Shown here one piece after another: positions 3,612-20,586 of a stretch of DNA of 24,151 nt. The translations under genes were made by a program, and so were the position numbers. The stretch is from a virus (taxonomy: Duplodnaviria; Caudoviricetes): positions 1 to 24,151 of the IMG/VR virus record IMGVR_UViG_3300002098_000157. One strand, 5' to 3'. Numbering within the stretch: position 1 is the stretch's first letter; each line of letters begins with the position of its first letter. A model generated the notes under the pieces. It had not been told where the DNA came from. It searched no databases and saw only the letters and a list, made by a program, of their open reading frames with translations.

Positions 3612-3634
3612 CGCGTCTACACATTGAGGTGCCC

Positions 3635-5482
3635 ATGGCCACTAAACCATCCATCGAGCAGATGAAGTCGGAACTCACCAAGAAGGGGAAGGCCGACAAG
3701 CCTCTGCACTACAAGCCAGCCCCTCCCCTAAGTAAAGCCGATATCACTGCCGAGGCAGATCGCATCGCCCGCCAAGTGTCTGGTCAGGACAACCCACAGG
3801 GCATGACCCAGCAGCAGATGGCCCGCAATGCTGGGCTTGATGTGGACATCCGTGGCAAGAAGAAGGCCAAGATCGACCCCATCGACTTCGAGCGCTTCAA
3901 GGGCGCCTACTCCATCGGGGTGCCCGGCGACCCCAGCCGTGGTGGCCTCGTCCCCTCCAAACCCACCAAGGGCATCAAGGAGCCCAAGGCCGGTGAGTAT
4001 CTCCATGGCATTGGCGGCGAAGAGCTAGAGCGCCCTGTGCCACTGTACGGCGGTAAGGACTACGGCGCCTACGGTGGCCCGGCAGGATGGGCAAGCGACC
4101 TCTCATCGAGCGCAGGCATGTTCAATGTGGCCAAGAGGCTGGCAGAAGAAGACCCAAGCCGGGCAGTGCTTGGCCACTACCACAAGATGTCGCCCGAGTC
4201 GCTCAACCATGCCCTGCACATGCTCGACGCCGTGCTGACGTACCACCGCCCACATGAAGCGCCCAAGGAGCAGCAGGAGATGCTGAACCACCTGATGCGC
4301 AACGTCACAACAACCACGGCCAAGTCAGACATCCCGTACCCGGACTTCCCCGGCTTTGAGAACCCGGCAGCGGTCATGCTCCATGGCTCCATGAGTTCGG
4401 GCATGCGCAAGAAGCTGATCAACCTGCTGGGCACCCAGAAATACTTCCCCGGCGGCAAGCAGAAGCTGGAGGACATAGTGCATGCCATCAGTCATCCCGA
4501 GTTGCGCAACCTTGAGACAGGGGCTGGTGGCCATGCCATCTTGAAGTTCGACCCCAGCAAGGAACTGAAGGACACCATCTCCAGCCACCCCACCTATGGC
4601 CACGACATCCCCTCGGAGTTGATTGGCAAGACAAAGTACCCTACGCCATTTAAAATACTGGCACCACGCTCTCACCACAATGCCGTGACGGAGATCGCCG
4701 CCATGGGCAAGAAGGTCAACCCATTCAATCAGGCCAAAATGAACATCATCCGCGAACCTATTGACGAGCAATACATCAACCAGATGGGCGAGTACGAGCA
4801 GATGATGCGAAAGCTGCTTGGCCATGCTGAAGGCGGCAACGTCAAGGCCGAGCACATCCACAAGCTCATGGCCATGCGCCCCTACTTTGAAGAGCAGGCC
4901 AAGCGCAAGCAGGCGTACAACGACTACACCAAGACGGTCTACCCCCAGCACCAGAAGACATACTCCGACTGGGCGCAAGAGCAGGGCTACCACAATGGCC
5001 CGAGCCAAGATGAGATGCTGGCCCACGTCATGATGCACAAGGCCGAAGGTGGTGCCGTCGATCTGGCCAACGTCGGTGTCGAGGAAGCCCCCGACATGAA
5101 CGTGAAGGACTACATCAGCCCCGGCCCACAAACTGCCGACCAGTTGCCCGTCGGTGGCGTGGACATGATCCCCGTGCAGCCCGGCCAGCAACTGATGCCC
5201 TCACCCAGCCCCGGCGGTATGCCACAACCTTCCGGCCAGCCCCCCGGCATGCAGATACCTCAGGACGGCCCTCAGAACCCGCTGGCACAGCTTGGCGCAC
5301 CCAAGGGCACCCCACCTATGGGCGCGGCCCCTATGGGCATGCCTAAACCCCCACAAGGGGGATTACCCCAAGGTGTCCAGCCCCAAGGCCCGCAGCCCAC
5401 GTCAATGAGCAACCTGCTGAACCTGACCCGCCCCGGCCAAGCCCTGAACGCCATGAAACCTCAGATGGGAGCACCACGATGA
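3635..5482 (+). CDS. large modular hypothetical protein (candidate internal virion/ejection protein) with Pro/Gln/Gly/Met-rich tail
   Basis: Long ORF with phage-typical codon bias. ATG 3635 is preferred because GTG 3629 overlaps the RBS. A globular region is followed by two AEGG motifs and a low-complexity C-terminus. Confidence 0.85.
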   Translation: MATKPSIEQMKSELTKKGKADKPLHYKPAPPLSKADITAEADRIARQVSGQDNPQGMTQQQMARNAGLDVDIRGKKKAKIDPIDFERFKGAYSIGVPGDPSRGGLVPSKPTKGIKEPKAGEYLHGIGGEELERPVPLYGGKDYGAYGGPAGWASDLSSSAGMFNVAKRLAEEDPSRAVLGHYHKMSPESLNHALHMLDAVLTYHRPHEAPKEQQEMLNHLMRNVTTTTAKSDIPYPDFPGFENPAAVMLHGSMSSGMRKKLINLLGTQKYFPGGKQKLEDIVHAISHPELRNLETGAGGHAILKFDPSKELKDTISSHPTYGHDIPSELIGKTKYPTPFKILAPRSHHNAVTEIAAMGKKVNPFNQAKMNIIREPIDEQYINQMGEYEQMMRKLLGHAEGGNVKAEHIHKLMAMRPYFEEQAKRKQAYNDYTKTVYPQHQKTYSDWAQEQGYHNGPSQDEMLAHVMMHKAEGGAVDLANVGVEEAPDMNVKDYISPGPQTADQLPVGGVDMIPVQPGQQLMPSPSPGGMPQPSGQPPGMQIPQDGPQNPLAQLGAPKGTPPMGAAPMGMPKPPQGGLPQGVQPQGPQPTSMSNLLNLTRPGQALNAMKPQMGAPR

Positions 5483-7662
5483 ACCAGCAAGAGTTGCAAC
5501 GCATACTCCTCATGCCTGAAGGCTTGCGGGCTCAGTATCTTGCGGCTCTGAAGAAGCCCCAGAAGATGGCCGATGGGGGTGGGTTTGGTCGCAAAGCCCA
5601 GCGGATCAACCAAGCCACCAGCTTTGGCGATGAGCCCATGGGCAACCAAATTATCAAAGAGACGGGCGGCAACTGGCTGGGTGGTAATGTTGAGAAGGCT
5701 CTTGACCCCTTGACTCGCACCGTGCTCAATGACACTGGAGTCAACAACCTTCGGTCACGACAAGGGGATGAAGTTGCCAACGCATACCTCAAAGAACGCC
5801 CACGCCACGAGGCAGCCAACAACTGGGTGCGAGGCAACCTGACCAACTACGTCAAGAAGCAGATGGCCACCGAGGCCGACCCCGTGCGCAAGCTGGCCGA
5901 GCAGGGCATCAGTCACTTCCCCGTGGTGGATGATCCCCGCTTCTGGAATCGTAAAGGCGAGTCGGCCCGTGAGGCATTGAGTGGCAGGCAAGTCGGGAAG
6001 TCCGATCTGGCCAAGCAATGGGAAAACCGCAGCGACTCCATGATCGAGCGCGACACCGCCCAAGAACATCAAGACATGATGCACCTTGCGCCGGGCCTCT
6101 ACTCAGAGAAAGACGCATGGATCAAGAACGCGCCACCTGAGACCAAGATACACAAAACCGCAGGCAATCGCCCCGGCTTCAACGCTGCTGATCTTGGCTT
6201 TGACCACATCATGGACGTGCTCAAGGAAGACCTAGCAGAGGGCCGCATCCGTCCCGAGCAACTGAGCAAGATCAGCATGGAGCAGGCCGTGCGTCGTGTC
6301 CATGAGTACGACCAAGACAAGCTCAAGAAAATGAGAGAGGCCCAGATCAAGAACACCGAGGGCATGCCAGTCCACAAGGTATACAACGATGGCCACAAGT
6401 GGATCGAGTTGGCTATGCCAAAAGGTGAAGCGGCACTATCTGATCTTGGCAAACAAATTATGGCCAAACACAAAGCAGAAGGCACTGAGCCAAGTCCGGG
6501 TGTTTTGGAGCAAGCCATTAAACAAGGTGGAGAAGAAAAACTTCGCGAAGCCCTCAAGTACGAAGGCGACGCCATGGGCCATTGCGTCGGCGGGTACTGC
6601 CCTGATGTCATGGAAGGCCGCAGCCGCATCTTCAGCCTGCGTGACGCTAAGGGTGAGCCGCATGTGACGGTGGAGACGGAACCTTTGCATGGTGCTGAAT
6701 TAGGTCGATATGCCGCTGACTTGCCCGAGGGCAAAGATGTGATTGCAATGAAAAACCCACCTCACCGCATTGTTCAGATCAAAGGCAAAGGCAATGGCAA
6801 GCCTGTGGCCAAGTACATCCCCATGGTGCAAGACTTTGTGAAGTCCCACAGTTGGGCTGATGTGGGTGATCTGCACAATACAGACCTGATCCACCTTGAT
6901 CCAAAAAGCGATCTAGCTCAAGCCATTCAAGCCAATGGTGAGAAGCCTCCGCGATACATCACCAACCAAGAGTTGACTGACCTTAGTAAAAAGCACAACT
7001 TCCCAACGTGGGTGAACAATGTTCAGAAGAAGGCCGACGGCGGCAGCATAAAAGCATCTGAGCGTGATGCCAACCTTGCGCAGTTCTTGAAGGACAGCGC
7101 GGTTAAGGATCGGATGTACCACGCCACCTCCCATGACTTTAGCGAGTTTGCGGACAACCCACGCGGAGTGCATTTTGTAACTCCATCCGCAAATTGGGCA
7201 AACAAATTTTTGAGCCAAGACGGGGGGATGCCGCCCGACCCCTTAATCATGCCCTTGCATGTCAGCGTTAAAAACCCTTTTGATTACGCAAACAAAAAAC
7301 ACCGCGATGCTTTGGCAGTCAAAGCCAGCATCGGAAAACTTGGTATGGACGAAATCAAAAAAGGTAAGTGGGGTCGAATTGAAGACCGCACCACACTCAA
7401 GGCAATCAAAGACCTTGGGCATGACAGCGTGTACGTTAAAGAAAATGGAATCAAAAATCTTGGCGTATTTGATCCCAATCAAATTAAATCCGCCATCGGT
7501 AACCGTGGCACCTACGACCTCAACAACCCAGACATCACCAAAGCCCAAGGCGGCAGCATCAAGCCCGTGGGTTACACTAAAGAAAAAGTTACAGTTTCAC
7601 CCAGTCTTGACCGCATGCAGTACGAACTGATGAGCGTGAAACACTTCAAAAAGGCCAAATGA
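5479..7662 (+). CDS. polyvalent-type protein with PcfJ-like domain and C-terminal ADP-ribosyltransferase-like (ART-PolyVal-like) domain
   Basis: EGDAMGHCVGGY...IFSLRD...HVTVE...QIKGKGN is PcfJ-like. MYHAT...GVHFVT...PLHVSVKNP...GHDSV...VFDPNQIKSAIGNRGTYD is ART-PolyVal-like. ATGA overlaps on both sides. Confidence 0.8.
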   Translation: MNQQELQRILLMPEGLRAQYLAALKKPQKMADGGGFGRKAQRINQATSFGDEPMGNQIIKETGGNWLGGNVEKALDPLTRTVLNDTGVNNLRSRQGDEVANAYLKERPRHEAANNWVRGNLTNYVKKQMATEADPVRKLAEQGISHFPVVDDPRFWNRKGESAREALSGRQVGKSDLAKQWENRSDSMIERDTAQEHQDMMHLAPGLYSEKDAWIKNAPPETKIHKTAGNRPGFNAADLGFDHIMDVLKEDLAEGRIRPEQLSKISMEQAVRRVHEYDQDKLKKMREAQIKNTEGMPVHKVYNDGHKWIELAMPKGEAALSDLGKQIMAKHKAEGTEPSPGVLEQAIKQGGEEKLREALKYEGDAMGHCVGGYCPDVMEGRSRIFSLRDAKGEPHVTVETEPLHGAELGRYAADLPEGKDVIAMKNPPHRIVQIKGKGNGKPVAKYIPMVQDFVKSHSWADVGDLHNTDLIHLDPKSDLAQAIQANGEKPPRYITNQELTDLSKKHNFPTWVNNVQKKADGGSIKASERDANLAQFLKDSAVKDRMYHATSHDFSEFADNPRGVHFVTPSANWANKFLSQDGGMPPDPLIMPLHVSVKNPFDYANKKHRDALAVKASIGKLGMDEIKKGKWGRIEDRTTLKAIKDLGHDSVYVKENGIKNLGVFDPNQIKSAIGNRGTYDLNNPDITKAQGGSIKPVGYTKEKVTVSPSLDRMQYELMSVKHFKKAK

Positions 7663-10139
7663 TGGACGAGCTAGACGAAAACATGCCAGACATTCAAGAG
7701 AACGACGACGGCAGCGCAGACGTGTTAATGCCTGAGATGAGTCTTGAGACCGAAGAACTGCCTGATGGCTCGGCCATTGTCCGCATCCCCGATGACGGCC
7801 CCGAGGTCAACCCTGACTTCTACGCCAACATGGCAGAAGACTTGGACGAGTTTGATCTGGGTGGTCTGGCATCACGCTACCTTGACCTGCTAGAGAACGA
7901 CAAGAACGCCCGCGAACTGCGCGACAAGCAGTACGAAGAGGGCATCCGTCGCACTGGCATGGGCAATGACGCACCCGGCGGCGCTACGTTCATGGGCGCA
8001 TCCAAAGTGGTTCACCCCGCCATGGCCGAGGGCTGTGTTGACTTCGCTGCCCGTGCCATCAAAGAGATGTTCCCGCCAGACGGCCCCGTCCGCACCAAGA
8101 TTCTGGGCAAGCAGGACGAGGACAAGCAAGAGCGTGCCGAGCGCAAGCGCGACTTCATGAACTGGCAGATCACTGAGCAGATCGAAGAGTTCCGCGACGA
8201 GCAAGAGCAACTGCTAACCCAATTGCCTCTGGGCGGCTCCCAATACTTCAAGCTCTGGTACGACGAGCAGAAGAAGCGCCCATGCGTGGAGTTCCTGCCA
8301 ATCGACCGGATGATCCTGCCCTTTGCGGCCTCCAACTTCTACACCGCCGAGCGTGCGGCAGAAATCCACGAGATCACCCACTGGGAGTTCAACCGCCGTA
8401 TCGCCTCGGGCATGTACATCGATGTGAACTTGCCCCGCTCCACGGTTGAGCCAGAGCAGACCCGTCCCGAGAAGGCCAACAACAAGATTGAAGGCCGCAA
8501 GTTTGAAGAGAACGAGGATGGCCTGCGCGAGGTCTACCACATCTACACCTACTTGGAACTGGACGACGACAGCTACTCCAAGGGCGAGATGGCCCCCTAC
8601 ATCCTGATGATCGACAAGATCAGCCAGAAGATCGTGGGCCTGTACCGCAACTGGGAAGAGCAAGACGAGACCATGACCAAGCTGGACTGGATCGTCGAGT
8701 TCAAATTCATCCCGTGGCGGGGTGCGTATGCCATCGGGCTACCTCACCTCATCGGAGGCCTCTCTGCTGCCCTGACGGGCGCTTTACGGGCCTTGCTGGA
8801 CACCGCGCACATCAACAACTCGGCCACCATGCTGAAATTGAAAGGCGCCAAGATCAGCGGCCAGTCTGCCCAGCCCGACGTGACGCAGGTAATCGAGATC
8901 GAGGGCGCCCCCGGCGTGCAGGACATTCGCCAGATCGCCATGCCCATGCCCTTCAATCCACCGTCAGAGGTGCTATTCCAGCTTCTGGGCTGGCTTGACA
9001 CCGCCGCCAAGGGAGTAGTGACCACCAGCGAGGAAAAGATCGCTGACGTGACCGCCCAAGCCCCTGTGGGCACCACGCAGGCACTGATCGAGCAGGGCGC
9101 CGCCGTGTTCTCGGCCATCCACGCCCGCCTCCATGAGTCGCAAGGCCGTGTCCTGAAGATTCTGGGACGCTTGAACCGCTGGCACTTTGACGAAATGCGC
9201 AAGGCCGACATCGTCACCGATCTGGAAATCCGACGCGAGGACTTTGCCAAGAACACGGACGTGATCCCCGTCAGTGACCCGCACATCTTCTCCGAGACCC
9301 AGCGGATGGCCCAGATGCAGGCAGTGCTGGCGCTGGCCGAGAAGCACCCTGACCAGTTCAACATCAATGCTGTGTTGGAGCGATCCCTCAAGCAAATGAA
9401 GATTCCCGACATCAACATCATCCTCAAGGACACGCCAGCCCCCGAGCAGCGCACCTCTGCGGACGAGAATGCGGCGATGCTCATGGGTCATGCTTCCTAC
9501 GCCTACATGACGCAGGATCACATCGCCCACATTCAGGATCACCTGCAATTTGCCATGAACCCATTCTTGGGCCAATCGCCGTTTGCCGACCCCAATTACC
9601 TGAACCAAACAATCGAGCACCTGAAACAGCACATGACCCTGTGGTACCTCAACCGCAGCAATGCCTATGTGGCCGAAAGCCGTGGTGGCAAACCTTTGGA
9701 CAACTACGATGATCCCAAACTCACGTCAAGCGTTGACAAACTATATGCGGTCGTTGGAGCGCATGTTCAGCAAGACACCAAGGAAGTCTTCGGCGCCTTT
9801 GCACCAGCCTTCCAGCAGCTTATTCAGATGGCCCAGCAGCGCCAGCAATCGCAGAAGCAGAACCTGCCACCTGACGCCCAAGTTGTTCACGATACCAGCA
9901 TGGCTGAGACCCAGCGCAAGACCCAGAAGGATCAAGCTGACGTTCAACTGGCCAAGGCCAAACTTGATGCGGAAATGCAGCAGCATGCTTCTGACAACCA
10001 AACCAAGATTGCGATTGAGAACGCCAAGCTGACTCACTCTACAATCCAACAGCAAAACGAATTGGCGGCAACGCCACAACCGGCAGCAATGCCACCGGCA
10101 GAAATGCCACAACCTCAAGGAGCGCCAAATGGCATCTGA
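7659..10139 (+). CDS. portal protein
   Basis: 826 aa with acidic N-terminus, SKVVHPAMAEGCVDF, FKFIPWRGAYAIGL.HLIG and PVGTTQALIEQG motifs, and a Gln-rich coiled-coil (barrel-like) C-terminus; positioned between terL and the head genes. Confidence 0.9.
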   Translation: MMDELDENMPDIQENDDGSADVLMPEMSLETEELPDGSAIVRIPDDGPEVNPDFYANMAEDLDEFDLGGLASRYLDLLENDKNARELRDKQYEEGIRRTGMGNDAPGGATFMGASKVVHPAMAEGCVDFAARAIKEMFPPDGPVRTKILGKQDEDKQERAERKRDFMNWQITEQIEEFRDEQEQLLTQLPLGGSQYFKLWYDEQKKRPCVEFLPIDRMILPFAASNFYTAERAAEIHEITHWEFNRRIASGMYIDVNLPRSTVEPEQTRPEKANNKIEGRKFEENEDGLREVYHIYTYLELDDDSYSKGEMAPYILMIDKISQKIVGLYRNWEEQDETMTKLDWIVEFKFIPWRGAYAIGLPHLIGGLSAALTGALRALLDTAHINNSATMLKLKGAKISGQSAQPDVTQVIEIEGAPGVQDIRQIAMPMPFNPPSEVLFQLLGWLDTAAKGVVTTSEEKIADVTAQAPVGTTQALIEQGAAVFSAIHARLHESQGRVLKILGRLNRWHFDEMRKADIVTDLEIRREDFAKNTDVIPVSDPHIFSETQRMAQMQAVLALAEKHPDQFNINAVLERSLKQMKIPDINIILKDTPAPEQRTSADENAAMLMGHASYAYMTQDHIAHIQDHLQFAMNPFLGQSPFADPNYLNQTIEHLKQHMTLWYLNRSNAYVAESRGGKPLDNYDDPKLTSSVDKLYAVVGAHVQQDTKEVFGAFAPAFQQLIQMAQQRQQSQKQNLPPDAQVVHDTSMAETQRKTQKDQADVQLAKAKLDAEMQQHASDNQTKIAIENAKLTHSTIQQQNELAATPQPAAMPPAEMPQPQGAPNGI

Positions 10140-10290
10140 TACCGAACAACGTAGCATCAATGTGCCCCAGCACAAACGCATGGCCCAAGGTGAAAAACTT
10201 GACGGCACCAGCCTCAAAGGCTCTGGCGGCAACGCACCCAAGAGCACAAGCTCTAAAGGTGGCCTGAGCGCCCTGACCAAGAAAAAATGA
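10129..10290 (+). CDS. small basic protein, 53 aa (not in the ORF track)
   Basis: AAGGAG RBS inside the portal 3' end; MASDTEQRSINVPQHKRMAQG...LTKKK; stop overlaps the next ATG. Confidence 0.75.
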   Translation: MASDTEQRSINVPQHKRMAQGEKLDGTSLKGSGGNAPKSTSSKGGLSALTKKK

Positions 10291-10466
10291 TTAACCCTCT
10301 GATCCATGTGATCAAACTACGACAAGCCGAAATTAGCCATTCCCTCGCCTCAGGAAATGCTACTAATTGGGAGTCGTACCAGCGGATGGTAGGTGAGCAC
10401 CAAGGGATGCAATACGTCCTTGATGCCATCGACCGGATGCTGGAAGAAGAAGAAGGTAGAGAATAG
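10287..10466 (+). CDS. small helical protein, 59 aa (not in the ORF track)
   Basis: ATGA coupling; MINPLIHVIKLRQAEI...NWESYQRMVGEHQGM...EEEEGRE; fills the gap before the groES-like gene. Confidence 0.8.
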   Translation: MINPLIHVIKLRQAEISHSLASGNATNWESYQRMVGEHQGMQYVLDAIDRMLEEEEGRE

Positions 10467-10467
10467 C

Positions 10468-10484
10468 CCGCGATTAAATCGCGG
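10468..10484. repeat. interrupted palindrome, copy 2 (CCGCGAT-TAA-ATCGCGG)
   Basis: Exact core 15-mer at 10469-10483, extended by one base pair; begins just after the TAG at 10464-10466. Confidence 0.9.
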
Positions 10485-10491
10485 CACAGTA

Positions 10492-10554
10492 AGTCCCCCT
10501 AAAGGACTGAGGCCGCTCTGATAAAGAGCTTAGATGACGCATCTGCAAAGATGT
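10492..10554 (+). promoter_or_regulatory. structured leader with three tandem hairpins upstream of the groES-like gene
   Basis: AGTCC/GGACT (10492-10508), GCTCT/AGAGC (10515-10529), GCATCT-GCAA-AGATGT (10539-10554). Confidence 0.45.
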
Positions 10555-10569
10555 ATTTTAGGAGTTAGT

Positions 10570-11025
10570 ATGAGTGAGAAAGAGAAAATCCCTACCATTG
10601 AGGGAGTTGCGGGAGTGCCTGATCCCGCAGAGTTAGCATGGGCGTTCCCGGATACCAATCCCGGCCAAGCCCCGTTGGGAGGTCGCGTGATTGTGCAACT
10701 GCGCCGCATTAAAAAGCGAGCAGGCCGCATCATCATCGTTGACGAGACCAAAGAAAACGAGAAGTGGAACAACATGATCGGCAAGGTCGTGGCAATTGGC
10801 CCTCTCGCATACCGCAATCGCGAAACCATGGAAACTTGGCCAGAGGGAACTTGGGCCGAAGTGGGTGATTTCGTGCGCGTCCCACGTTGGGGCGGTGATC
10901 GTTGGGAACGTCATGTGCCCGGCGAAGAAGATCAGGAAGACCCAGTCCTGTTCATGACCATCAACGACCACGAAGTGATCGCAAAAATCACGGACGACCC
11001 CCTGTCGTTCAAAACCTACGTCTAA
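10570..11025 (+). CDS. groES: GroES/Cpn10-like co-chaperonin
   Basis: PLGGRVIV, GKVVAIGP, VGDFV and INDHEVIA match the Cpn10 fold motifs; AGGAG RBS precedes ATG 10570. Confidence 0.88.
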   Translation: MSEKEKIPTIEGVAGVPDPAELAWAFPDTNPGQAPLGGRVIVQLRRIKKRAGRIIIVDETKENEKWNNMIGKVVAIGPLAYRNRETMETWPEGTWAEVGDFVRVPRWGGDRWERHVPGEEDQEDPVLFMTINDHEVIAKITDDPLSFKTYV

Positions 11026-11034
11026 GGAGACACC

Positions 11035-12018
11035 ATGGCTACCGACAAAGACAAAATGCAACTGGATGTTCAGGAAGACGCCGACGGTTCTGCCGTTGTT
11101 GATCTACCGGATAACTTCGCGGTCGAGGATGACCACGAACCAAAGGAAAAAGCCGAGGGCGGCGAGGTTCAGGACGACGAACCAGACCTTCCCAACGACT
11201 CTGAAGCCGTTTTAGCGGCCAAACGTGCCCGTCGCAAGGCCAAACGTGACCTCGCCAAGCGGTCGCGTGAGGAAAAAGACGTGCAATTGAACGCCCTGAA
11301 GCGCCAAAACGACGAAATGGCTCGCCAATTGGCCCAAGCCGACGCCCGTTTGCAGCGCGTGGAGCGTGAAAGCCACAACAGCTTCGTTTCCCGCATGGAT
11401 AAAGCCATCCAAGACCAACAAGTTCGGGTGGAATACGCCAAAATGAAGCTGGCCGAGGCCGCAAACTCCAACGACGGCTCCGCAATGGTGCAGGCCCAAG
11501 AGCTAATGTACGAAGCCCGCAAGGATTTGGAGCAATTAGAGGGCCAGAAGCGTCAAATTGAGCGCCAACCAGCCCCAGAAGCGCCTGTAAACGCCCCTGA
11601 CCCCCGTGTGCAGCGTAATGCGGCCCAGTGGCTGGAGCGGAACAACTGGTACAAGGTGGACGGCTCGGACACAGACAGCCGAATTGCCAAGGAAATCGAC
11701 GTAGAACTGTCCAAAGAGGGCTGGGCGCCCACCGATCCCGACTATTGGGACGAATTGGACAACCGCTTGCAAAAATACCTACCACATCGCTATAATGGCG
11801 CATCTGACGGTAATTCCACTGTTAGAAAACCTAGGAATGTTGTGGGAAGTTCTGGCCGCGAGTCTTCTGCCTCTTATGGTGGTTCCAACCGCCAGTTCAC
11901 GCTTTCGCCCGAACGGGTTAAGGCGATGAAGGAAGTTGGCGCTTGGGATAACCCCGAGCGTAAGAAGCGCATGATCGAGAACTTTATTGCCTTTGACCGC
12001 AACAATCGTAGGAGCTAA
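11035..12018 (+). CDS. putative capsid scaffolding protein
   Basis: Acidic N-terminus, long charged coiled coil, WLERNNWY segment and C-terminal LSPERVKAMKEVG helix; lies upstream of the capsid genes. Confidence 0.75.
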   Translation: MATDKDKMQLDVQEDADGSAVVDLPDNFAVEDDHEPKEKAEGGEVQDDEPDLPNDSEAVLAAKRARRKAKRDLAKRSREEKDVQLNALKRQNDEMARQLAQADARLQRVERESHNSFVSRMDKAIQDQQVRVEYAKMKLAEAANSNDGSAMVQAQELMYEARKDLEQLEGQKRQIERQPAPEAPVNAPDPRVQRNAAQWLERNNWYKVDGSDTDSRIAKEIDVELSKEGWAPTDPDYWDELDNRLQKYLPHRYNGASDGNSTVRKPRNVVGSSGRESSASYGGSNRQFTLSPERVKAMKEVGAWDNPERKKRMIENFIAFDRNNRRS

Positions 12019-12020
12019 AA

Positions 12021-12566
12021 ATGGAATCACGTTACAAAAAATCTCTCAATGCTGGTGGCCGCAATGATCGCGCAAGCGAGGACGCTGGACGCGCCGCACC
12101 TGAGAAAAAGTTCGCTTCAACACAGGAACATCGCAAGATGTGGAGTGAGGAGTGGACGCAATCAGCCTTGCCAAAACTGCCCGAAATTGACGGGTGGCAC
12201 CTTTGCTGGCTTTCAACAACCAATAGCTACGACTCCATAGATAAGAAGATTCGCCAAGGCTACGTTCCCGTTAAGTCGGAAGAGTTGCCCGGTTATGACA
12301 ATTATCGAGTGAAGGCCGGTGAGCATGTTGGGTATATTTCCTGCAACGAGATGTTGCTGTTCAAACTCCCCATGGATATCTTCCAAGACATCATGCTTTA
12401 CCAACACCACGAGAAGCCTCGTGAGGAAGCGGAAAAAATCCGTGTCCAGTTGGAATCGCTACAGGGACAGCGTGACAGCAGCGGCAAGTCGCTTGTAAAT
12501 GTTGAGGGCGAAGGTCTTGGTAATTTTGATCAGCAACCAAGCAAACTTCCCGTATTTTCGGGATAA
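12021..12566 (+). CDS. head-module hypothetical protein, 181 aa
   Basis: AGGAG RBS; LPEIDGWHLCWLST...QGYVPVK pattern; lies between scaffold and capsid genes. Confidence 0.85.
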   Translation: MESRYKKSLNAGGRNDRASEDAGRAAPEKKFASTQEHRKMWSEEWTQSALPKLPEIDGWHLCWLSTTNSYDSIDKKIRQGYVPVKSEELPGYDNYRVKAGEHVGYISCNEMLLFKLPMDIFQDIMLYQHHEKPREEAEKIRVQLESLQGQRDSSGKSLVNVEGEGLGNFDQQPSKLPVFSG

Positions 12567-12582
12567 CCCCTAAGGAGTCTTT

Positions 12583-13182
12583 ATGAGTGCTACCTCTGCT
12601 CCGTTTGGCTTGCGTCCTGCGTTCCACCCTTCCGGTCTGGATCGCGCACAGGCGCTTGCTGGCGGCATTACATCTGGATATTCGACCCAGATTCTGAAAG
12701 GTCAACCTGTTGCATACAGCGCAGGCGCTGGCGTCATCATCCCATTGACAACTAACCCCGCTGCGGGTTCGGCTGTTGCATGGTCTGGTGCATTCGCTGG
12801 TGTCGAGTGGACTGATACAACTGGTCGCCGTCGTGTGTCGAACTACTGGCCTGCAAGCACTGCTTACATCGCCGGTTCGTGCGTTGCTTACTTCTACAAC
12901 GATCAAAACATCGTTTATGAAATCCAAGCTGACGGTTCTATGGCGCAAACCACCATTGGTTACGAGTACAACTTCACTAACGTGACGTCGGGCTCTTCTA
13001 CCACTGGCTTGTCGCAAGCTACCTTGGGTTCTGCAACTCAAGCAACCGCATCTTCTGGCCAAGGCCAAATGCGCGTTGTTGACATTGCTCCTTATGTAGA
13101 TAACGCCTTCGGGGACGCCTACACTATTGTTCGAGTTGTGAACGCACAGTCGCAATTCTTCGGTAGCGTCGTTTCTATCTAA
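12583..13182 (+). CDS. putative capsid decoration/cement protein, 199 aa
   Basis: Strong RBS, highly expressed codon style, beta-rich Ala/Gly/Thr/Ser composition, APFGLRP N-terminus; directly before the MCP gene. Confidence 0.7.
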   Translation: MSATSAPFGLRPAFHPSGLDRAQALAGGITSGYSTQILKGQPVAYSAGAGVIIPLTTNPAAGSAVAWSGAFAGVEWTDTTGRRRVSNYWPASTAYIAGSCVAYFYNDQNIVYEIQADGSMAQTTIGYEYNFTNVTSGSSTTGLSQATLGSATQATASSGQGQMRVVDIAPYVDNAFGDAYTIVRVVNAQSQFFGSVVSI

Positions 13183-13199
13183 TCAAGGAGTAACTGAAA

Positions 13200-14114
13200 A
13201 TGGCAGCACCAATGCGCAGTACGGACTTCCGTAGTATCGTTGAGCCTATCCTCAACGAGTGCTTCGATGGAGTCTATGACCAACGTGCCGATGAATGGAG
13301 CCGTGTGTTCCGTGAAGAAGACGGCATTCCCCGTAACTACCACGAAGAGCCCGTCCTGTACGGTTTCGGCGCGGCACCTCAGTTGCCTGACGGCACCCCG
13401 GTGACGTACCAACAAGGTGGTGTTCTGTTCCTGCAACGCTATGTGTACAAGGTATATGGCCTCGCCTTTGCCCTGACCAAAGTGTTGGTAGAGGACGGTG
13501 ACCACATCCGTATCGGCCAAGTGTATGCAAAGCATCTGGCACAGTCCTTGGTGGAAACCAAAGAACTGTTGTCGGCTAACGTGCTGAACACTGCTTTCAA
13601 CTCTTCGTATGTTGGCGGCGACGGCGTTTCCTTGATCAACACCGCTCACCCGATTGTGAACGGCACTTTCAGCAACCAGTTGTCTACTGCTGCTGTTCTG
13701 TCGCAAACATCGCTTGAGCAGATGCTGATCCAGATTCGCCAAGCTGTTGACAACAACGGCAAGAAGATTCGTTTGGTGCCACGCCAATTGGTGGTGGCTC
13801 CGGGCAACATCTTCCAAGCCGAAGTGTTGTTGAAATCGGTTTTGCGTACCGGCTCGGCAAACAACGACATCAACCCCGTCAAGTCTATCGGCTTGCTGGA
13901 CGAAGGTGCCGCTGTTCTGTCCCGTCTGACTTCGTCTACCGCATGGTGGGTTCAGACCGACGCTCCCGAGGGCATGAAGCTCTTGATGCGCCGTCGTCTG
14001 GAGAAGACCATGGAAGGCGATTTTGAGACCGACTCGATGCGCTACAAAGCAACTGAGCGTTACACAGTGGGTTGGACTGACCCCCGTGCAATGTACGGTA
14101 CAGCAGGTATTTAA
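13200..14114 (+). CDS. major capsid protein (Mu gpT-like, HK97 fold)
   Basis: 304 aa; GGDGVSL...AHP, PRQLVVAP and EGDFETDSMRYKATERY.VGWTDPR motifs; strong RBS; followed by a terminator-like hairpin. Confidence 0.92.
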   Translation: MAAPMRSTDFRSIVEPILNECFDGVYDQRADEWSRVFREEDGIPRNYHEEPVLYGFGAAPQLPDGTPVTYQQGGVLFLQRYVYKVYGLAFALTKVLVEDGDHIRIGQVYAKHLAQSLVETKELLSANVLNTAFNSSYVGGDGVSLINTAHPIVNGTFSNQLSTAAVLSQTSLEQMLIQIRQAVDNNGKKIRLVPRQLVVAPGNIFQAEVLLKSVLRTGSANNDINPVKSIGLLDEGAAVLSRLTSSTAWWVQTDAPEGMKLLMRRRLEKTMEGDFETDSMRYKATERYTVGWTDPRAMYGTAGI

Positions 14115-14129
14115 TACCTGACGGCCTTG

Positions 14130-14162
14130 GAAGGGGAGCCGCAATCCCCTTCTATCATTTTT
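14130..14162 (+). terminator. probable intrinsic terminator (may be leaky)
   Basis: GAAGGGGA-gccgcaa-TCCCCTTC stem followed by the interrupted U-tract TATCATTTTT. Confidence 0.65.
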
Positions 14163-14193
14163 AACATCGGTCAAACTTTTCAAGGAGCAGACC

Positions 14194-15183
14194 ATGCCTC
14201 AATTTTCAGACGATCTATTTCTAGGCCCAGTACCGGGCTACCAAGGCACAGGTATTTACCCGTCCTCGACTACTTTTACTGGTTCTATCGCAACCACCAC
14301 GCTGACCGTTACAGCCATGCTGTCAGGCGACCCCATTGTTTTGGGCATGTATGTGTCTGGCGCAAACGTGGCTACCGCAAACACCTATATCACGGCCTTT
14401 GGCACTGGTACAGGCGGAACTGGTACCTACACCGTCAGCACCTCGCAAACGGCTGCTAGCGCCACGATTGTGGGCTCTGGCAACGCCTTTGCTGGTGATC
14501 CGTCGCCCATGTCTTTGGGTATTGGCCCATTGGGTCGTATCTACGTTTGGGACGTTGTGCCTTTGGCCGCTGTCACCAATAACCTAGCAGCCTCGCAAAC
14601 GCCTACTGGCGCTGGCAGTTTGACCCTGACTGCTGGTACCGGCGTCAAGTCGATTGTTCGTGCTGACGGTACTACTGTTTTGCAACTGGACTGCCCTCGT
14701 GCTCTGAGCGTGACTACGGGTTCTGGTACTACTACCAGTTCCAACATCGTCATCACTGGCTATGACTATTATGGTCAGCCCATGAGTGAGCAGATTGCCT
14801 CTGGTACTGTGGCCTCCACCACGACCCCCGGCAAGAAGGCTTTTTACCAGATCAGCGGCATTACCGGCTCGGCTGCTACTACTTCCACCATCGTGGTTGG
14901 TACGACCCAGTTGCTTGGCTTGCCAGTGCGCGTGACTGATGGCGGTTATATCTGCCATGTAGGCTGGAATAACAGCTTTGCAATTGACGGCGGCACTTTT
15001 GCTGCTGCTGTTCAGACCACGCCATCGACCATCACTGGTGACGTTCGCGGTACATTCAGCCCATCTAGCGCACCTGATGGCGTCAAACGCCTGATCGTCG
15101 GTTTGATGTTGCCCGGTATCGCTGTTGGCCCCAATGCAACCCGTGTGGGTGCTTTTGGTCTCAATCAAAACCTTGTTTCCTAA
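14194..15183 (+). CDS. virion structural protein, Thr/Gly-rich, 329 aa
   Basis: AAGGAG RBS; beta-strand-rich; contains an [14 protein letters not shown]...[11 protein letters not shown] module; follows the MCP gene. Confidence 0.8.
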
Positions 15184-15195
15184 TAGGAGGACATC

Positions 15196-16497
15196 ATGGG
15201 TCAATTCAAACCAATGGTTAAGATGGAGACCACTGAGCCTTCAGTTATTCTGAAGCTCAAAAAAGGTGGTCATGTGGCCATGAACAGCAAAAGTGAAAAC
15301 GGGCATACCAATATGCGCGAACACTGCGCTGACGATGAGGCTGCTGAGTCTGGAAGCGCTCCTAAAAAGCCTTCCATGGCCGACCGCCGCAAGGCAATGA
15401 ACCCCAACTTCATGAAGAAGGGTGGCATGGCCAAGCACGATGACGCTGCTCAAGACCGCGCCATGATCAAGAAGGCGCTGGCTGGCAAGAAGTTCGCTTC
15501 TGGCGGCACCATTCAAGGTAATGCAGGCAAGTTCCTGAATACCAAGGTAATGGACGGCGACAAGACAGACAGCGCCAAAGGCACCGGCAAAGTCAAAAAT
15601 GGTAATGGCGGTGGCTATGCTGCTGGCGGCACCATTGAAGGCAACGCTGGCAAGTTCTTGAACACCAAAGTTGTCGATGGCGACAAGAACGATGGTGCCA
15701 AGGGCACTGGCGGCGTCAAGATGGGCAATGGCGGCGGCTACAAGCGTGGTGGCAAGGCCATGATGCACAAAGCCACTGGCGGTGCTATTGAGGGCAACGA
15801 AATGAAGTTTGCCGTCAACAATGTGGACACCACACCTCCGGGCAAGAGCAACACCAAAACTGGTGATGTGAAGAACGGCAACGGTGGCGGCTACAAAAAA
15901 GGCGGTGCTGCAAAAAAGCACTATGCTACGGGGGGCGCAGTTGACACTGGCCGTGCCGTAGCAATGCCACAACGACCTGTTTCGCAACCGATCCGCAACA
16001 CCATGCAATCTGGCACCTTTGCCAAGGGCGGTGCAGTTGGAAAAGAGGAGAAGCCAAACCTTCGCCTCTTGAAGACTCATGCTGGCCCCAAAGGTCACAC
16101 AGCCAAAGTCTACAAAGACAAGGACTGGGGTGAGCATCGCGTGAAATTTTTCAGCCCAGAAGGCAAGCACATGTCTGATTCGGATTACCATACCGATGAT
16201 ATGGCAGATGCTAATGACACCGCAAAAGGCCAACTTGGACGCTTCAAAAAAGGTGGCAAGGTCGCCCACAAAGCCGATGGCGGCAAGATGGAAGACTTGA
16301 GTCGTGGTGCCTATGATCGGTCAATTGGCCCAGATGAAGACGACATGGATATGGCTCGTGCCATTCGCAGCGTTCCTTCCAAAATCGTCAACGCTGCAAA
16401 GCGTATGATGGGCAAATTGCCAGACACAGGTGCTGAAGCAGGACGAGGGTTCACAAATCCTCTAATGACCCGCAAAAACGGCGGTCGCGCAAAGTAA
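15196..16497 (+). CDS. Lys/Gly-rich repeat protein with 12 [AK]xGG motifs (candidate internal polyprotein)
   Basis: AGGAGG RBS; 433 aa, basic and low in complexity; three 41-aa repeats; followed by a terminator. Confidence 0.88.
   Translation: MGQFKPMVKMETTEPSVILKLKKGGHVAMNSKSENGHTNMREHCADDEAAESGSAPKKPSMADRRKAMNPNFMKKGGMAKHDDAAQDRAMIKKALAGKKFASGGTIQGNAGKFLNTKVMDGDKTDSAKGTGKVKNGNGGGYAAGGTIEGNAGKFLNTKVVDGDKNDGAKGTGGVKMGNGGGYKRGGKAMMHKATGGAIEGNEMKFAVNNVDTTPPGKSNTKTGDVKNGNGGGYKKGGAAKKHYATGGAVDTGRAVAMPQRPVSQPIRNTMQSGTFAKGGAVGKEEKPNLRLLKTHAGPKGHTAKVYKDKDWGEHRVKFFSPEGKHMSDSDYHTDDMADANDTAKGQLGRFKKGGKVAHKADGGKMEDLSRGAYDRSIGPDEDDMDMARAIRSVPSKIVNAAKRMMGKLPDTGAEAGRGFTNPLMTRKNGGRAK
15502..15900 (+). repeat. 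three 123-bp (41-aa) intragenic repeats
   Basis: Units 15502-15624, 15625-15747 and 15778-15900, each GG[TA]I[QE]GN...K.GNGGGYxx. Confidence 0.9.
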
Positions 16498-16501
16498 AAT
16501 A

Positions 16502-16526
16502 GTGGGGGCTTCGGCCCCCGCTTTTT
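16502..16526 (+). terminator. intrinsic terminator
   Basis: GTGGGGGC-TTCG-GCCCCCGC stem with a C(UUCG)G tetraloop, followed by TTTTT. Confidence 0.92.
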
Positions 16527-16538
16527 AAGGAAAAAATC

Positions 16539-19193
16539 ATGGGCATTCAAGTCGTATATACCAATTCGTCCTCCAATACGGAGAGTCAACTGCGCACGCA
16601 GACCTCACAGCGTTCAGGAGCTTATGACCCCGTTGATAAGCTGCGCGTCTCGACACCGCAAGCCTTGATCGACACCGACTTTGAGTACGGCACCCAGCCG
16701 ACCAAGTGGGAAAGTATTGCGCTCCAGCAAAATCGCCAGAGTGTGTATTACATCCCCCAATCCCCAATCACAATTGACAACTCGACCAACACCAAAGGAA
16801 TCCAAGGTGCTGGAACTACGTCTGTTGTAATTTTCATGGCCAGCACCGCAGGTATTTCTGTTGGTACGCCCATGTACATCCAAAATGCCACAGACCCCAA
16901 TGCCAATGGCTGGTGGTATGCCACTGCGGTAAGCACCAACGTCAGCGTAACTGTGACCACCACCAACGTGGTTGCAAGCGGCAATCAATTTAATCCGGGC
17001 TACACCTATGTGTATTCTGGCTATTTCTACTCCAATTGCGGTATCAACCTTGGCTCCAACGCCTTCACGGTCACCAGCGCCACTACGATCACCGTAACGA
17101 CCGCTACGCCGCATGGATTGAGCGCAGGCAGCTACATCTATGTGGTAGGCCTTGGAGGCTCTCCTGTCAACGTGATGGGCGCTTTTACGGTCACCACGGT
17201 GCCAACGTCCAATACCTTTACCTATACCACCTCTGGAGCCTCTGGCACGCCCACCAACTCGGCTGGCAACGTCAACTTGTACGCCCGGCCCTCTGGCTAC
17301 GTTGAATCTCGTCCGTTTGACGGCGGCGTGGCCTTCTCAGCAGGTGCCGTGGTGCCCAACCAGCAACTGATCCGTCAGACTCGCCGCTACTTCCGCTACC
17401 AGTCGGGCAAGGGCATCCAGTTCTCGACCGGCACTTGCCTGAAGCCAGCCATCTTCACAACCTCACTGGCAGCCAGCAGCACTTCAGTCGGCGCTACCAT
17501 CACGGTCACCACTCGTTACGCCCACAATCTGGCAGTTGGTACTGTGATTCAAGTAGCTGGCGTGAATGAAACAGGCTACAACGGCAATTACACAATCGCC
17601 ACAGTTCCTACGCCCACCACGCTGACCTACACCGCCACCACGGCGCCATCCTCCACAACGGCAACCGGCATTCAGATCAAGGTGTCGCCGCTCAGTTGGT
17701 ACGGCTCGACCAACCGGATTGGCTTCTTCGACCAGCAGAACGGCATGTTCTTTGAGTTTGATGGCCAAACCCTGTATGCCGTGTGGCGCAGCAGCACGAC
17801 CCAGTTGAACGGCACCGTGGCCGTCACCAATGGCTCTGGCTTGGTCACCGGCACAGGCACCCAGTTTGCAACCCAACTCACTCCGGGTGACTACATCGTA
17901 ATTCGTGGTCAGTCCTACAAGGTGGTCAACATCGCCAGCAACACGTCCATGTACATCTCCCCAGAGTACCGTGGTGCCACGCTGAACACGACCAACACGC
18001 CCAATGCGGGCTACATCGTGTCCAAGACGATTGACGTGCGCGTGCCTCAGTCGCAATGGTTTGACCCATGCAACGGTACTGGCCCGTCGGGATACAACCT
18101 TGATCTGACCAAGATGCAGATGTTCTATATCGACTACTCGTGGTACGGCGCTGGCGTGATCCGCTGGGGCTTCCGTACTACGGGCGGCGCAATCATTTAC
18201 GTTTATGCGCAGCAGAACAACAACATCCAGACCGAGGCCTACATGCGTTCGGGCAACATGGCTGCTCACTATGAGTCGAATCAGCAAAACCCAGTTACTT
18301 ACCTGACTGCTGACTTGGCTTCTGGCACAACGGCCTCTATGAGCGTTGGTGACACCAGCTTATTTGCGCCATCAGGCACAGCCAAGGTGACGGCGGCATC
18401 TGCTACTGGCGCAATTGAGTACATCACCTACACAGGTAAAACATCAACCACATTGACAGGGTTGACTCGTGGCGCAACTGGTGGCTCTGCTGCAACCACG
18501 TTCACATATTCCGCTACAGCACCAATTGCTGTGGAATATTCGGCTCCTGACTCTGCGCCTTCGTTGTCCCATTGGGGCTCGTCGGCGATCATGGATGGTC
18601 GTTTTGATGATGACAAATCGTTGATCTTCAACTACGGAAGCCCTGCCAAGCTGACGACAACTACCAGCACCACGCAGTTGACGCCTGTTTTGGCTATTCG
18701 CATTGCTCCTTCGGTGGACAACGGCACGACTGGACTGATGGGTCTCAAGGAAACAATCAACCGCATGCAATTGCAGTTCGTTGAACTTGGTATCTATGCA
18801 ACTGGCCCGCTGCTGGTGAACTTGGTGCTCAATGGCTACTCCAGCGGTGCATTTAGCTCCTCGTTCCAGTCTCCTGTGACAAGCGGTGCAGGTGCTGTTA
18901 CATCGTCTTTGGCGCAAGTGGCTACCAACATTACCAACTCCATCTCCATCACTGGCGGTGAGTCGGTTGCTGCGGCGTTCACCAACACCAACGGCCAGAC
19001 CACTTTGGATTTGACTCAGGTGCGTGACTTGGGCAATTCAATCTTGGGTGGCGGGACAAGCATCTCTATCCCCACAAGCCAAGCCAATTTCTACCCAGAT
19101 GGCCCAGACATCTTGTACGTTTGCGTGACGCCGTTAACGGCCACCGCAATCGACGTATTTGCCCGTCTGTCTTGGAAAGAAGCGCAGGCCTAA
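16539..19193 (+). CDS. large virion structural protein with several inserted beta-rich (FCCH-like) modules, 884 aa
   Basis: DKLRVSTPQALID N-terminus, RQTRRYFRYQSGKG and IDYSWYGAG core motifs, and repeated TITVTT...H.L..G modules. Confidence 0.85.
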   Translation: MGIQVVYTNSSSNTESQLRTQTSQRSGAYDPVDKLRVSTPQALIDTDFEYGTQPTKWESIALQQNRQSVYYIPQSPITIDNSTNTKGIQGAGTTSVVIFMASTAGISVGTPMYIQNATDPNANGWWYATAVSTNVSVTVTTTNVVASGNQFNPGYTYVYSGYFYSNCGINLGSNAFTVTSATTITVTTATPHGLSAGSYIYVVGLGGSPVNVMGAFTVTTVPTSNTFTYTTSGASGTPTNSAGNVNLYARPSGYVESRPFDGGVAFSAGAVVPNQQLIRQTRRYFRYQSGKGIQFSTGTCLKPAIFTTSLAASSTSVGATITVTTRYAHNLAVGTVIQVAGVNETGYNGNYTIATVPTPTTLTYTATTAPSSTTATGIQIKVSPLSWYGSTNRIGFFDQQNGMFFEFDGQTLYAVWRSSTTQLNGTVAVTNGSGLVTGTGTQFATQLTPGDYIVIRGQSYKVVNIASNTSMYISPEYRGATLNTTNTPNAGYIVSKTIDVRVPQSQWFDPCNGTGPSGYNLDLTKMQMFYIDYSWYGAGVIRWGFRTTGGAIIYVYAQQNNNIQTEAYMRSGNMAAHYESNQQNPVTYLTADLASGTTASMSVGDTSLFAPSGTAKVTAASATGAIEYITYTGKTSTTLTGLTRGATGGSAATTFTYSATAPIAVEYSAPDSAPSLSHWGSSAIMDGRFDDDKSLIFNYGSPAKLTTTTSTTQLTPVLAIRIAPSVDNGTTGLMGLKETINRMQLQFVELGIYATGPLLVNLVLNGYSSGAFSSSFQSPVTSGAGAVTSSLAQVATNITNSISITGGESVAAAFTNTNGQTTLDLTQVRDLGNSILGGGTSISIPTSQANFYPDGPDILYVCVTPLTATAIDVFARLSWKEAQA

Positions 19194-19194
19194 T

Positions 19195-19704
19195 ATGCCC
19201 AGCAAATCACCAGCCCAACATCGTCTGATGGAAGCAGCCGCCCACACCAAGGGTGGCTTTGGTGGCGTGCCGCAGAGCGTCGGCAAAGAGTTTGTCAAGG
19301 CCGACTCCATGAAGAATGGTGGGCTCTATGCCAACATTCACGCCAAGCAAGAGCGGATTGCGCACGGCTCCAAGGAGAAGATGCGCAAACCCGGCTCCAA
19401 GGGCGCCCCGACCGCTGAGGCCTTCAAGCAGTCAGCAAAGACTGCCAAGATGAAGGAAGGTGGCGTGTCGCTGGCAGTGGGCCGAGGCGAAAAGTTGTCC
19501 ACAAAGGCTGGCGCAGGACTTACCGAAAAGGGTCGTGCCAAGTACAATCGCGAAACAGGATCGCACCTGAAGGCGCCACAACCGCAAGGCGGTGCCCGCA
19601 AGGACTCATTCTGCGCTCGCATGAGTGGTGTGGTGGAGCACTCCAAAGGGGATGCACCTCGCGCTAAGGCTTCATTAAAACGCTGGGATTGCCCCGGCTG
19701 GTAA
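19195..19704 (+). CDS. basic three-module protein, C-terminal part DUF6321-like
   Basis: ATG follows the upstream TAA closely. The C-terminal GLTEKGRAKYN...LKAP...RKDSFCARM...SLKRWDC resembles DUF6321. Modules are separated by MKNGG and MKEGG. Confidence 0.8.
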   Translation: MPSKSPAQHRLMEAAAHTKGGFGGVPQSVGKEFVKADSMKNGGLYANIHAKQERIAHGSKEKMRKPGSKGAPTAEAFKQSAKTAKMKEGGVSLAVGRGEKLSTKAGAGLTEKGRAKYNRETGSHLKAPQPQGGARKDSFCARMSGVVEHSKGDAPRAKASLKRWDCPGW

Positions 19705-19714
19705 AGGAAAAATC

Positions 19715-20314
19715 ATGGGCAGGTCTAATTACACCGGAAACGCAGATTCCTACACTCAAGCCAGCGACCCAGATGCCGCAAGTTCAGTTGATCGTGGCGC
19801 AGCATCACGAGCATTGGCAAAAAAAGCCATGGATGAGGCTGATGCAGTGCGCAATTTGCAAATTTCAACTGGCCCAAATTATGGCGATGACATTCGCAAT
19901 TCCAAGTCAGATGCTAGTCCGTATGAGGATGAACCCAATGATCCAATGGAAGCAGCAAATATGCGTGCAGATTTGTCGCCTGTTGGCCCACGCGCCATGC
20001 CGACACGCCCCGGTCAAAACGCCAATGCCTCAGTAGCGCGGCCAGTGACTGCTTCACAGATGTTGAGCCGTCCTCGTCGCCCTGACCAACAGCGTGCAGA
20101 TGCGGCAGCGGCTGATCAAGCCGTTATTGACCGGATTGCACAACGCATGAACCCAAATCCAAAGCTAGGTTCTTTGCGTGGTACCCGTAATGCCATGATG
20201 GGCATGAAGGATGGCGGTGCGGCGAAGAACTACACTAACAAGGGCGGGAAGATCAACCTTGGCTCTGGACGCATTTCAACTGCTTCCAAAGGCAAAAAGA
20301 ACGCTGGGTGGTAA
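19715..20314 (+). CDS. hypothetical, probably disordered protein, 199 aa
   Basis: AAGGA RBS; rich in Ala/Pro/Asp/Arg; MKDGG motif before a basic tail. Confidence 0.75.
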   Translation: MGRSNYTGNADSYTQASDPDAASSVDRGAASRALAKKAMDEADAVRNLQISTGPNYGDDIRNSKSDASPYEDEPNDPMEAANMRADLSPVGPRAMPTRPGQNANASVARPVTASQMLSRPRRPDQQRADAAAADQAVIDRIAQRMNPNPKLGSLRGTRNAMMGMKDGGAAKNYTNKGGKINLGSGRISTASKGKKNAGW

Positions 20315-20316
20315 AT

Positions 20317-20586
20317 ATGATACGTCACAAAAACATCAGCCCCGGAGTACGCATTGAGTACAACAATGGCAATCTGAATGTTCAGACAAAACATGGCGAT
20401 GACTGGAAAACCCAAAAAAGCTATGACGAGATGTCCAATGGCATGGCGCATACTGAAGCCCAAGGCATGGCCTACCATTTAGCCAGCAAAGATATGTCGC
20501 GTTTTGAAAAACCGCCAGAATTCCGCGACCCGAAGCCCTACAAAAAAGGCGGCGCAGCAAAGAAAAAAACCCATTCTTCTTGGTAA
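20317..20586 (+). CDS. hypothetical protein, 89 aa
   Basis: ATG 2 nt after the upstream stop; small alpha/beta domain followed by YKKGGAAKKK. Confidence 0.75.
   Translation: MIRHKNISPGVRIEYNNGNLNVQTKHGDDWKTQKSYDEMSNGMAHTEAQGMAYHLASKDMSRFEKPPEFRDPKPYKKGGAAKKKTHSSW

Follow-up and report, generated by a model that had tools for sequence, protein, structure and literature searches.

Processing by a prohead protease is known in the phages T4, phiKZ and SPN3US, where a short motif recurs, several times per protein, in head and ejection proteins that are otherwise unrelated, with gp245 cutting after A-X-E (PMC10052503). Here, we analysed a motif of similar distribution, [YFMKL]-[AK]-x-G-G-x-[VAI], in a 24,151-nucleotide phage contig (IMG/VR record IMGVR_UViG_3300002098_000157, positions 1 to 24,151; hereafter the window), where it marks at least 20 sites in seven proteins. 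To judge from its capsid protein and gene order, this phage is an uncultured member of the group of Caulobacter phage RW and HTVC023P. As in the T4-type systems, the short motif is shared by several proteins that are presumably internal to the head. However, the T4-type enzymes cleave behind a Glu, have capsid and portal proteins among their substrates and are encoded by recognisable genes (PMC10052503), whereas the motif of the window has no conserved Glu, is almost absent from capsid and portal proteins and seems to carry its specificity downstream of the cut, and no such protease gene was recognised among the proteins scanned.

Three further systems offer points of comparison. Maturation of the tape-measure protein pb2 of T5, an ejected virion protein, involves a cut in R|A-E-G-G-x-M, which fits the motif (PMC10038345). 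The T5 case, however, is limited to a single site and a single tail protein, in a long-tailed phage; the module downstream is not detectably homologous to that of the window's family, and the available part of the T5 paper names no motif. The cargo protein C1 of crAss001 (gp45; PF25725) is likewise ejected, contains repeated x-[AK]-x-G-G strings and has an ordered domain that starts at one of them, but the available text on it proposes no processing (PMC10172136) and its homology to the family module is not significant. Phage-type polyvalent proteins join exchangeable effector domains in series, are encoded close to portal and terminase genes, and are proposed to be packaged and then proteolytically released, a release ascribed to zincin MPTase domains (PMC5512222). 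The window resembles them in the ART-PolyVal domain of its g9 protein (Pfam, E-value 4e-14) and in the reordering of modules among relatives, but no MPTase zincin was found by Pfam in g8, g9 or the scanned homologues. The available text of PMC5512222 mentions neither a Gly-Gly junction nor the word "glycine".

The signal in the window is real and probably represents a variant of virion protein processing or loading. The cysteine proteases adenain, pS273R of African swine fever virus, Ulp1 and C39 cut after Gly-Gly, and their substrates, precursor or core proteins, likewise carry a double-glycine motif. They differ in cutting after the glycines and in requiring a cysteine protease, none of which was found here by Pfam.

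A double-glycine motif in non-shell morphogenesis proteins

A preliminary description of the window listed 22 copies of the pattern [MFYKHLR]-[AK]-x-G-G in seven proteins (Table 1) and none in the large terminase, portal, GroES-like or major capsid protein (MCP). All 22 were recovered at the positions given for them and in the frames of called genes, and a pattern search over the called genes left those four proteins motif-free. Plus-strand genes hold 23 matches. The additional one, KKYGG at 1754, falls in the probable small terminase, has no x-Val tail and was treated as chance; three further matches fall in minus-strand frames. The comparison with shuffled controls that had been proposed yielded 3.3 matches on average and never more than 12 in 2000 shuffles of 22 window proteins, against the 23 observed in genes. 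Conservation is at the peptide level, as first suggested, with synonymous codons varying between copies (GGC, GGT and GGG at both glycines; GCT, GCC, AAA and AAG at the Ala/Lys).

Because the pattern was fitted to the window, counts in held-out homologues weigh more. These came from 80 loci, 79 from IMG/VR together with MW202545, which are close relatives, not dereplicated and not independent. The motif is carried by all 62 g19 homologues (725 copies against 51.5 expected), all 24 of g8 (115 against 12.9) and all 18 of g9 (71 against 6.9), by 57 of the 70 g21 homologues (94 against 12.9) and by 13 of the 67 scaffold homologues (13 against 2.1). No copy was found in the MCP (80 proteins), GroES (61), decoration-type (78) and g26 (40) homologues, and two were found in 57 portal proteins. 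A stricter pattern, applied to six near-complete records of the window's clade, matched 105 times in morphogenesis genes (7.6 expected; 69,051 residues) and three times in genes outside morphogenesis (2.4 expected; 37,552 residues), while six records of the RW-like clade held 3–15 copies against 1.4–2.6 expected.

Independently of any pattern, 1679 unique Gly-Gly contexts from the carrier families showed Y/K/M/F/L at position -3, K/A at -2 and V/A at +2, preferences that were absent from 823 Gly-Gly contexts in shell and tail families. Position +2 past the glycines is Val in 41, Ala in 18, Ile in 13 and Met in 8 per cent of 873 unique contexts, and about half of the copies have Ala and no Lys in the core. 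Among 1950 copies surveyed in 3180 dereplicated open reading frames (ORFs), the protein ends at the glycines once, one residue after them never, and two, three or four residues after them 25, 23 and 38 times, which indicates that the signal includes two residues past the glycines. None of the 1950 copies starts a protein, and an origin of the modules as genes beginning M-A-x-G-G was rejected on this ground. No published description of the motif was found in a full-text literature search, which left subscription journals largely uncovered.

The copies divide large unannotated genes into what are likely injected effector modules. In g9, the ART-PolyVal domain (residues 546–678), bracketed by the copies at 7030 and 7540, follows a PcfJ-like domain (residues 357–401; Pfam, E-value 3e-7), and the three modules of g21 match separate small PHROG families and DUF6321. 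The preliminary description had also raised the question of whether homology breakpoints in related phages fall at the motif. Of the internal BLAST ends, those no more than 10 residues away from a copy make up 14 of 36 for g8 (7% expected), 20 of 31 for g9 (9%), 144 of 173 for g19 (48%) and 27 of 35 for g21 (30%), figures that lean high because the motif itself may lengthen alignments; in the scaffold, only one of four ends is that close. In relatives, the modules of g8 and g9 are reordered and often fused into proteins of 1000–1490 residues. The two genes overlap by 4 bases in the window (within positions 5460–5580), and relatives join the equivalent modules in-frame via a motif copy.

The gene designated as the probable scaffold, from its position and coiled-coil-like composition, has a leader with a net charge of -9. 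Its homologues have Gly-Gly within residues 21–70 in 58 of 84 cases, mostly followed by x-Val, so that the element is better kept than the pattern counts imply. Between 15493 and 15891, g19 contains three repeats of about 41 residues, running from copy to copy and each closing in N-G-G-G.

The register of the motif and a probable role in virion maturation

The pb2 protein of T5 is cut after R1127, as mapped by proteomics with mass spectrometry and by intact mass (PMC10038345). The site reads R|AEGG-M-M, and the cut thus falls in the same string as the motif and in the same register. It is the only strict match and one of two loose matches in the 1219 residues of pb2; the strict pattern was written after the T5 sequence had been seen, with Met at +2 already at 8% beforehand. 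R-A-x-G-G is kept in three of four distant T5-family tape measures and the fourth has R-A-V-G-N. In crAss001, gp45 is ordered as residues 425–552 on the portal, in the head, and as residues 214–245 in the tail (PMC10172136). The protein has nine x-[AK]-x-G-G strings over its 842 residues, and one of these, N|AFGG, has residue 425 as its Ala. Both ordered pieces fall between successive strings, and the four gp45 peptide ranges quoted in the text of PMC10172136 cross none of the nine. Since the T5 cut and the ordered gp45 domain both begin on Ala, a cut in the motif would probably lie before the Ala/Lys and not after Gly-Gly.

Given that the T5 tape measure is cut within this same string, immediately ahead of its Ala, we lean, by a little, towards reading the motif as a site of virion maturation. 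It would mark the module joints and ends of non-shell morphogenesis proteins and be bound inside the particle as this assembles, with scission falling between the first motif residue and the Ala/Lys. The presence of at least two residues after the glycines in all but one of the 1950 copies fits recognition downstream of the cut. Cutting would release effector modules, for example the ADP-ribosyltransferase domain, and would reduce g19 and the scaffold leader to short fragments (7–75 residues if g19 were cut at every copy). We infer that the carriers are packaged and cut by a catalyst present in these phages or their hosts, and the motif suggests that this uncultured group has a protease or cargo receptor yet to be recognised.

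With a known register, the motif yields exact predictions elsewhere. For crAss001 gp45, new N-termini are predicted at A207, A261, A330, A425 and A560; the protein is seen on both sides of the portal, for which there has so far been no explanation by processing. In lambda, about 14 kDa is removed from the Gly-rich C-terminal region of gpH, with the site and catalyst stated to be unknown (PMC12617516). The prediction there is F733|A734, in F733|ATGG, which would give products of 79.8 and 12.5 kDa. Approximately 20 genome-collection contigs of unrelated bacteria (L368–L388) contain sequence 99–100% identical to lambda gene H, which is probably laboratory contamination.

Several findings weigh against cutting. 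No protease family was recognised in the window or in the scanned proteins of relatives, M15 and sub-threshold zincin-like matches aside, and a search for a virion proteome of this phage family found none. The motif is kept near C-termini, where many copies lie 2–7 residues from the end and a cut would separate almost nothing. The authors of PMC10172136 propose a continuous gp45 chain threaded through the portal, with no proteolysis mentioned in the available text, and the gp45 model boundary is not an N-terminus. The lambda fit is rough, about 78 and 14 kDa having been reported, and three S/G-A-x-G-G strings at residues 706–717 fit better. Moreover, the T5 and lambda cuts belong to the tail assembly of long-tailed phages, not to a head. 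The modules following the T5 site, in crAss001 gp45 and in lambda are not significantly similar to the conserved module of the window's family (hhalign P about 0.1; hidden Markov model E-values of at least 2), so the shared string could be convergent; the alignments behind the T5 comparison were shallow and the models poor. RW and HTVC023P, finally, have that module yet few motif copies. PMC10713586 reports that the C-terminal tape-measure fragments resolved in DT57C, lambda and 80alpha share no conserved motif, and the available texts of PMC4205034, PMC2248197 and PMC10713586 give no mapped cut site.

The main rival is that the motif serves for docking or packaging only, as an extended peptide bound by the portal, scaffold, capsid interior or an ejection protein, which would load and order cargo without any cut. 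Copies 2–7 residues from C-termini (g19, g23) would suit such a tag, paired copies 8–13 residues apart suggest avidity, the Pfam scans of window and relatives found no protease, and in crAss001 the domain that opens with the motif sits on the portal wing, to which it binds (PMC10172136). However, the sole mapped site at the string, that of T5, is a cut; copies stand at almost every internal joint, where one tag per protein would suffice; and no copy starts a protein. We therefore regard docking alone as possible, though on the unlikely side. Cutting and docking need not be mutually exclusive, as T4-type propeptides both target and get cut (PMC10052503).

It is improbable that the motif is only an evolutionary seam, that is, a flexible linker at which short stretches of similar DNA promote the exchange of modules and which has no protein reader. 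The breakpoints and the reordering of modules at the motif are what a seam would produce, but the free variation of synonymous codons, the fixed place of the peptide in the scaffold (58 of 84) and at protein ends, where no swapping occurs, and the sharp tail-length rule, which implies binding, all speak against it. Part of the preliminary description stands, namely a shared peptide signal of non-shell morphogenesis proteins at module joints, for which cutting and docking are both live; its comparison with proteases that cleave behind the two glycines (adenain, pS273R, Ulp1 and C39 peptidases) is not supported. The string does resemble the adenain site, and the short C-terminal tails resemble SUMO propeptides. 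Against this, the T5 cut (R1127|AEGG) and the crAss001 gp45 boundary (Ala425) precede Ala and would put the N-terminus there, position +2 past the glycines is conserved, one copy in 1950 ends at Gly-Gly, and no C5, C48 or C39 domain was found by Pfam in the scanned proteins, which makes such a cut very doubtful. The least probable reading, in which the copies rich in Lys and Gly bind DNA as parts of basic core proteins condensing the packaged genome, draws on the 17–19% Lys+Arg content of g19, g21 and g23 and fits poorly, as copies also occur in acidic contexts such as the scaffold leader and about half have no Lys in the core.

Candidate readers of the motif

The preliminary description saw no recognisable protease in the window, and Pfam likewise assigned no protease family to its 27 proteins. 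Specifically, no C5, C48, C39, prohead or JAB protease was found among them, although a divergent enzyme could escape profiles. The same classes were absent from 84 selected proteins of MW202545, RW and HTVC023P and from 109 proteins of three further relatives (54 of 66 from G403, 44 of 71 from G415 and 11 of 68 from G410; ORFs of at least 70 amino acids). The only peptidase-like matches in relatives were M15 cell-wall peptidases and two sub-threshold zincin-like matches in small genes of RW (E-value 0.003) and HTVC023P. Conserved proteins without an assigned function are g15, g25, a 77-residue gene and the module of the ejection-type gene, so labelled from its position and tape-measure matches.

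In MW202545 and RW, the ejection-type gene ends in this conserved module, G-x-G-T-G-x-S-D-x-I-x-A-x-L-x-x-G-[ED]-[YF]-V, which comes after a motif copy. The module matches tape-measure PHROGs (E-value 8e-9) and the tape measure of Douge (PDB 8ZDO; E-value 4e-9), and is kept in all 12 near-complete relatives. It has invariant or near-invariant Ser, Asp and Glu in the RW-like clade. The motif-rich clade has it as a tandem duplicate, in which YACGG fits the pattern but is a false copy, being aligned with G-Y-V-x-G-P-G in other modules. In proteobacterial tape measures, the module is usually flanked on both sides by a motif copy. No window protein contains it (best E-value 2–4), and the contig stops upstream of the nozzle and ejection-type genes known from relatives. 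The module, which directly follows the motif in tape-measure proteins, is our lead candidate for the reader provided that cutting occurs, though even then it is less likely than not. The nearest named Atlas family is crAss cargo protein 1 (PF25725; 0.85), which serves as a lead only. In the JBD30 paper, the same stretch is described as a predicted hook in which no peptidase motif was found, and a cut is speculated elsewhere, at residue 1066 (PMC11445458).

Structural approaches added little. AlphaFold2 models of the module were poor, with a predicted local distance difference test score (pLDDT) of 51 from 45 alignment rows, and a pLDDT of 62 and predicted TM-score of 0.35 from 98 rows. Searches with these models of the PDB by Foldseek, of BFVD and by VIA-align (best Z 2.5) returned nothing usable, the best BFVD match being a 580-residue, 73%-identical relative. 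A co-fold of the module with a 40-residue g19 peptide scored 0.01 and counts neither way. A likeness to Hint domains was considered and dropped, as no match was obtained. A divergent form of the module (E-value 1e-4 to 3e-8) occurs in gp79 of HTVC023P (L083:41799-42749), with no motif directly upstream.

At its widest, the preferred maturation reading would unite RW/HTVC023P-like phages, crassviruses, T5, and lambda-type and actinophage tape measures under a single processing system not described before, an extension we consider rather unlikely. A small Gly-Glu-containing module in the ejection or tape-measure protein would bind [AK]-x-G-G-x-V and cut just before it, in cis in tape measures or in trans in cargo-rich phages, where loaded, tagged polyproteins would be split into injectable effectors. 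If true, the site and the catalyst of the lambda gpH cut would both be named.

Alternative readers are g15 or a host enzyme. The g15 protein is present in all 15 related records and had no match in Pfam, PHROG, the PDB or named Atlas families; the Cys it contains is not conserved in Caulobacter phage RW. The catalyst could also be a host factor, and a 1973 paper reportedly refers, in its title, to a part played by the host in the T5 tail cut. In MW202545 (L082:13996-15816) and G415 (L562:17652-19475), the ejection-type gene is immediately preceded by genes for a ketoacyl-synthase and for proteins of 93 and 143–146 amino acids. The 93-residue protein resembles an acyl carrier by size and position, and the trio is possibly an acylation cassette for a virion protein.

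Genomic setting of the carriers

The window encodes, on the plus strand, terminase, portal, GroES-like, probable scaffold, capsid, adaptor and tail genes (Table 1). The MCP is 93% identical to that of MW202545, 79% to that of Caulobacter phage RW and 41–42% to those of HTVC023P and CRP-901. The gene order is common to the window, RW and HTVC023P, and the capsid protein together with the order portal, GroES, scaffold, g15, decoration and MCP is that of the RW/HTVC023P/CRP-901-like phages. No solved-structure relative of the window's capsid or portal protein was found. The uncultured group is widespread, with about 2400 IMG/VR stretches fitting its capsid patterns.

Table 1. Positions of the motif-bearing genes of the window and of neighbouring genes.
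Feature	Position	Strand	Remarks
Large terminase	2115..3554	+	motif-free (context)
g8, 617-residue modular protein	3629..5482	+	copies at 4823 and 5039 part a 399-residue module, a 72-residue linker and a Pro/Gln-rich module
Motif HAEGG-N-V (g8)	4823..4843	+	
Motif KAEGG-A-V (g8)	5039..5059	+	
g9, 727-residue polyvalent-type protein	5479..7662	+	copies at 5566, 7030, 7540
Portal protein	7659..10139	+	phrog_1216, E-value 2e-20; motif-free
GroES-like co-chaperonin	10570..11025	+	motif-free
Probable scaffold	11035..12018	+	KAEGG-E-V at 11149 closes an acidic 39-residue leader
g15, conserved 181-residue protein	12021..12566	+	lies between the genes for scaffold and capsid; candidate protease on position alone
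Major capsid protein	13200..14114	+	motif-free
g19, 433-residue Lys/Gly/Ala-rich protein	15196..16497	+	12 copies, at 15256, 15412, 15493, 15616, 15739, 15769, 15892, 15922, 16018, 16243, 16270, 16471
g21, small basic protein	19195..19704	+	copies at 19309 and 19450 part three modules
g22	19715..20314	+	copy at 20204, variant TNKGG-K-I at 20234, then short C-terminal tail
g23	20308..20586	+	copy at 20539, 10 residues upstream of the stop

Carriers often close in a short basic tail with a terminal Cys or Trp (G-G-x-C, S-C-W, G-W), as at 16471–16497, 19660–19704, 20280–20314 and 20539–20586 of the window and in homologues. The GroES gene adjoins the scaffold gene and is kept in 10 of 12 relatives. 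Downstream of g23, the conserved 97-residue protein g25 (21670–21963) has a Cys cluster and occurs throughout the group, with no family match. The head-tail adaptor (20593–21666) has an inserted F5/8-type domain; 10 of 50 adaptor homologues match the pattern, mostly as R-A-x-G-G within this domain, which is probably a beta-turn and not a signal. A Tad2-like anti-defence domain is encoded in the close relative MW202545 (L082:7300-7764).

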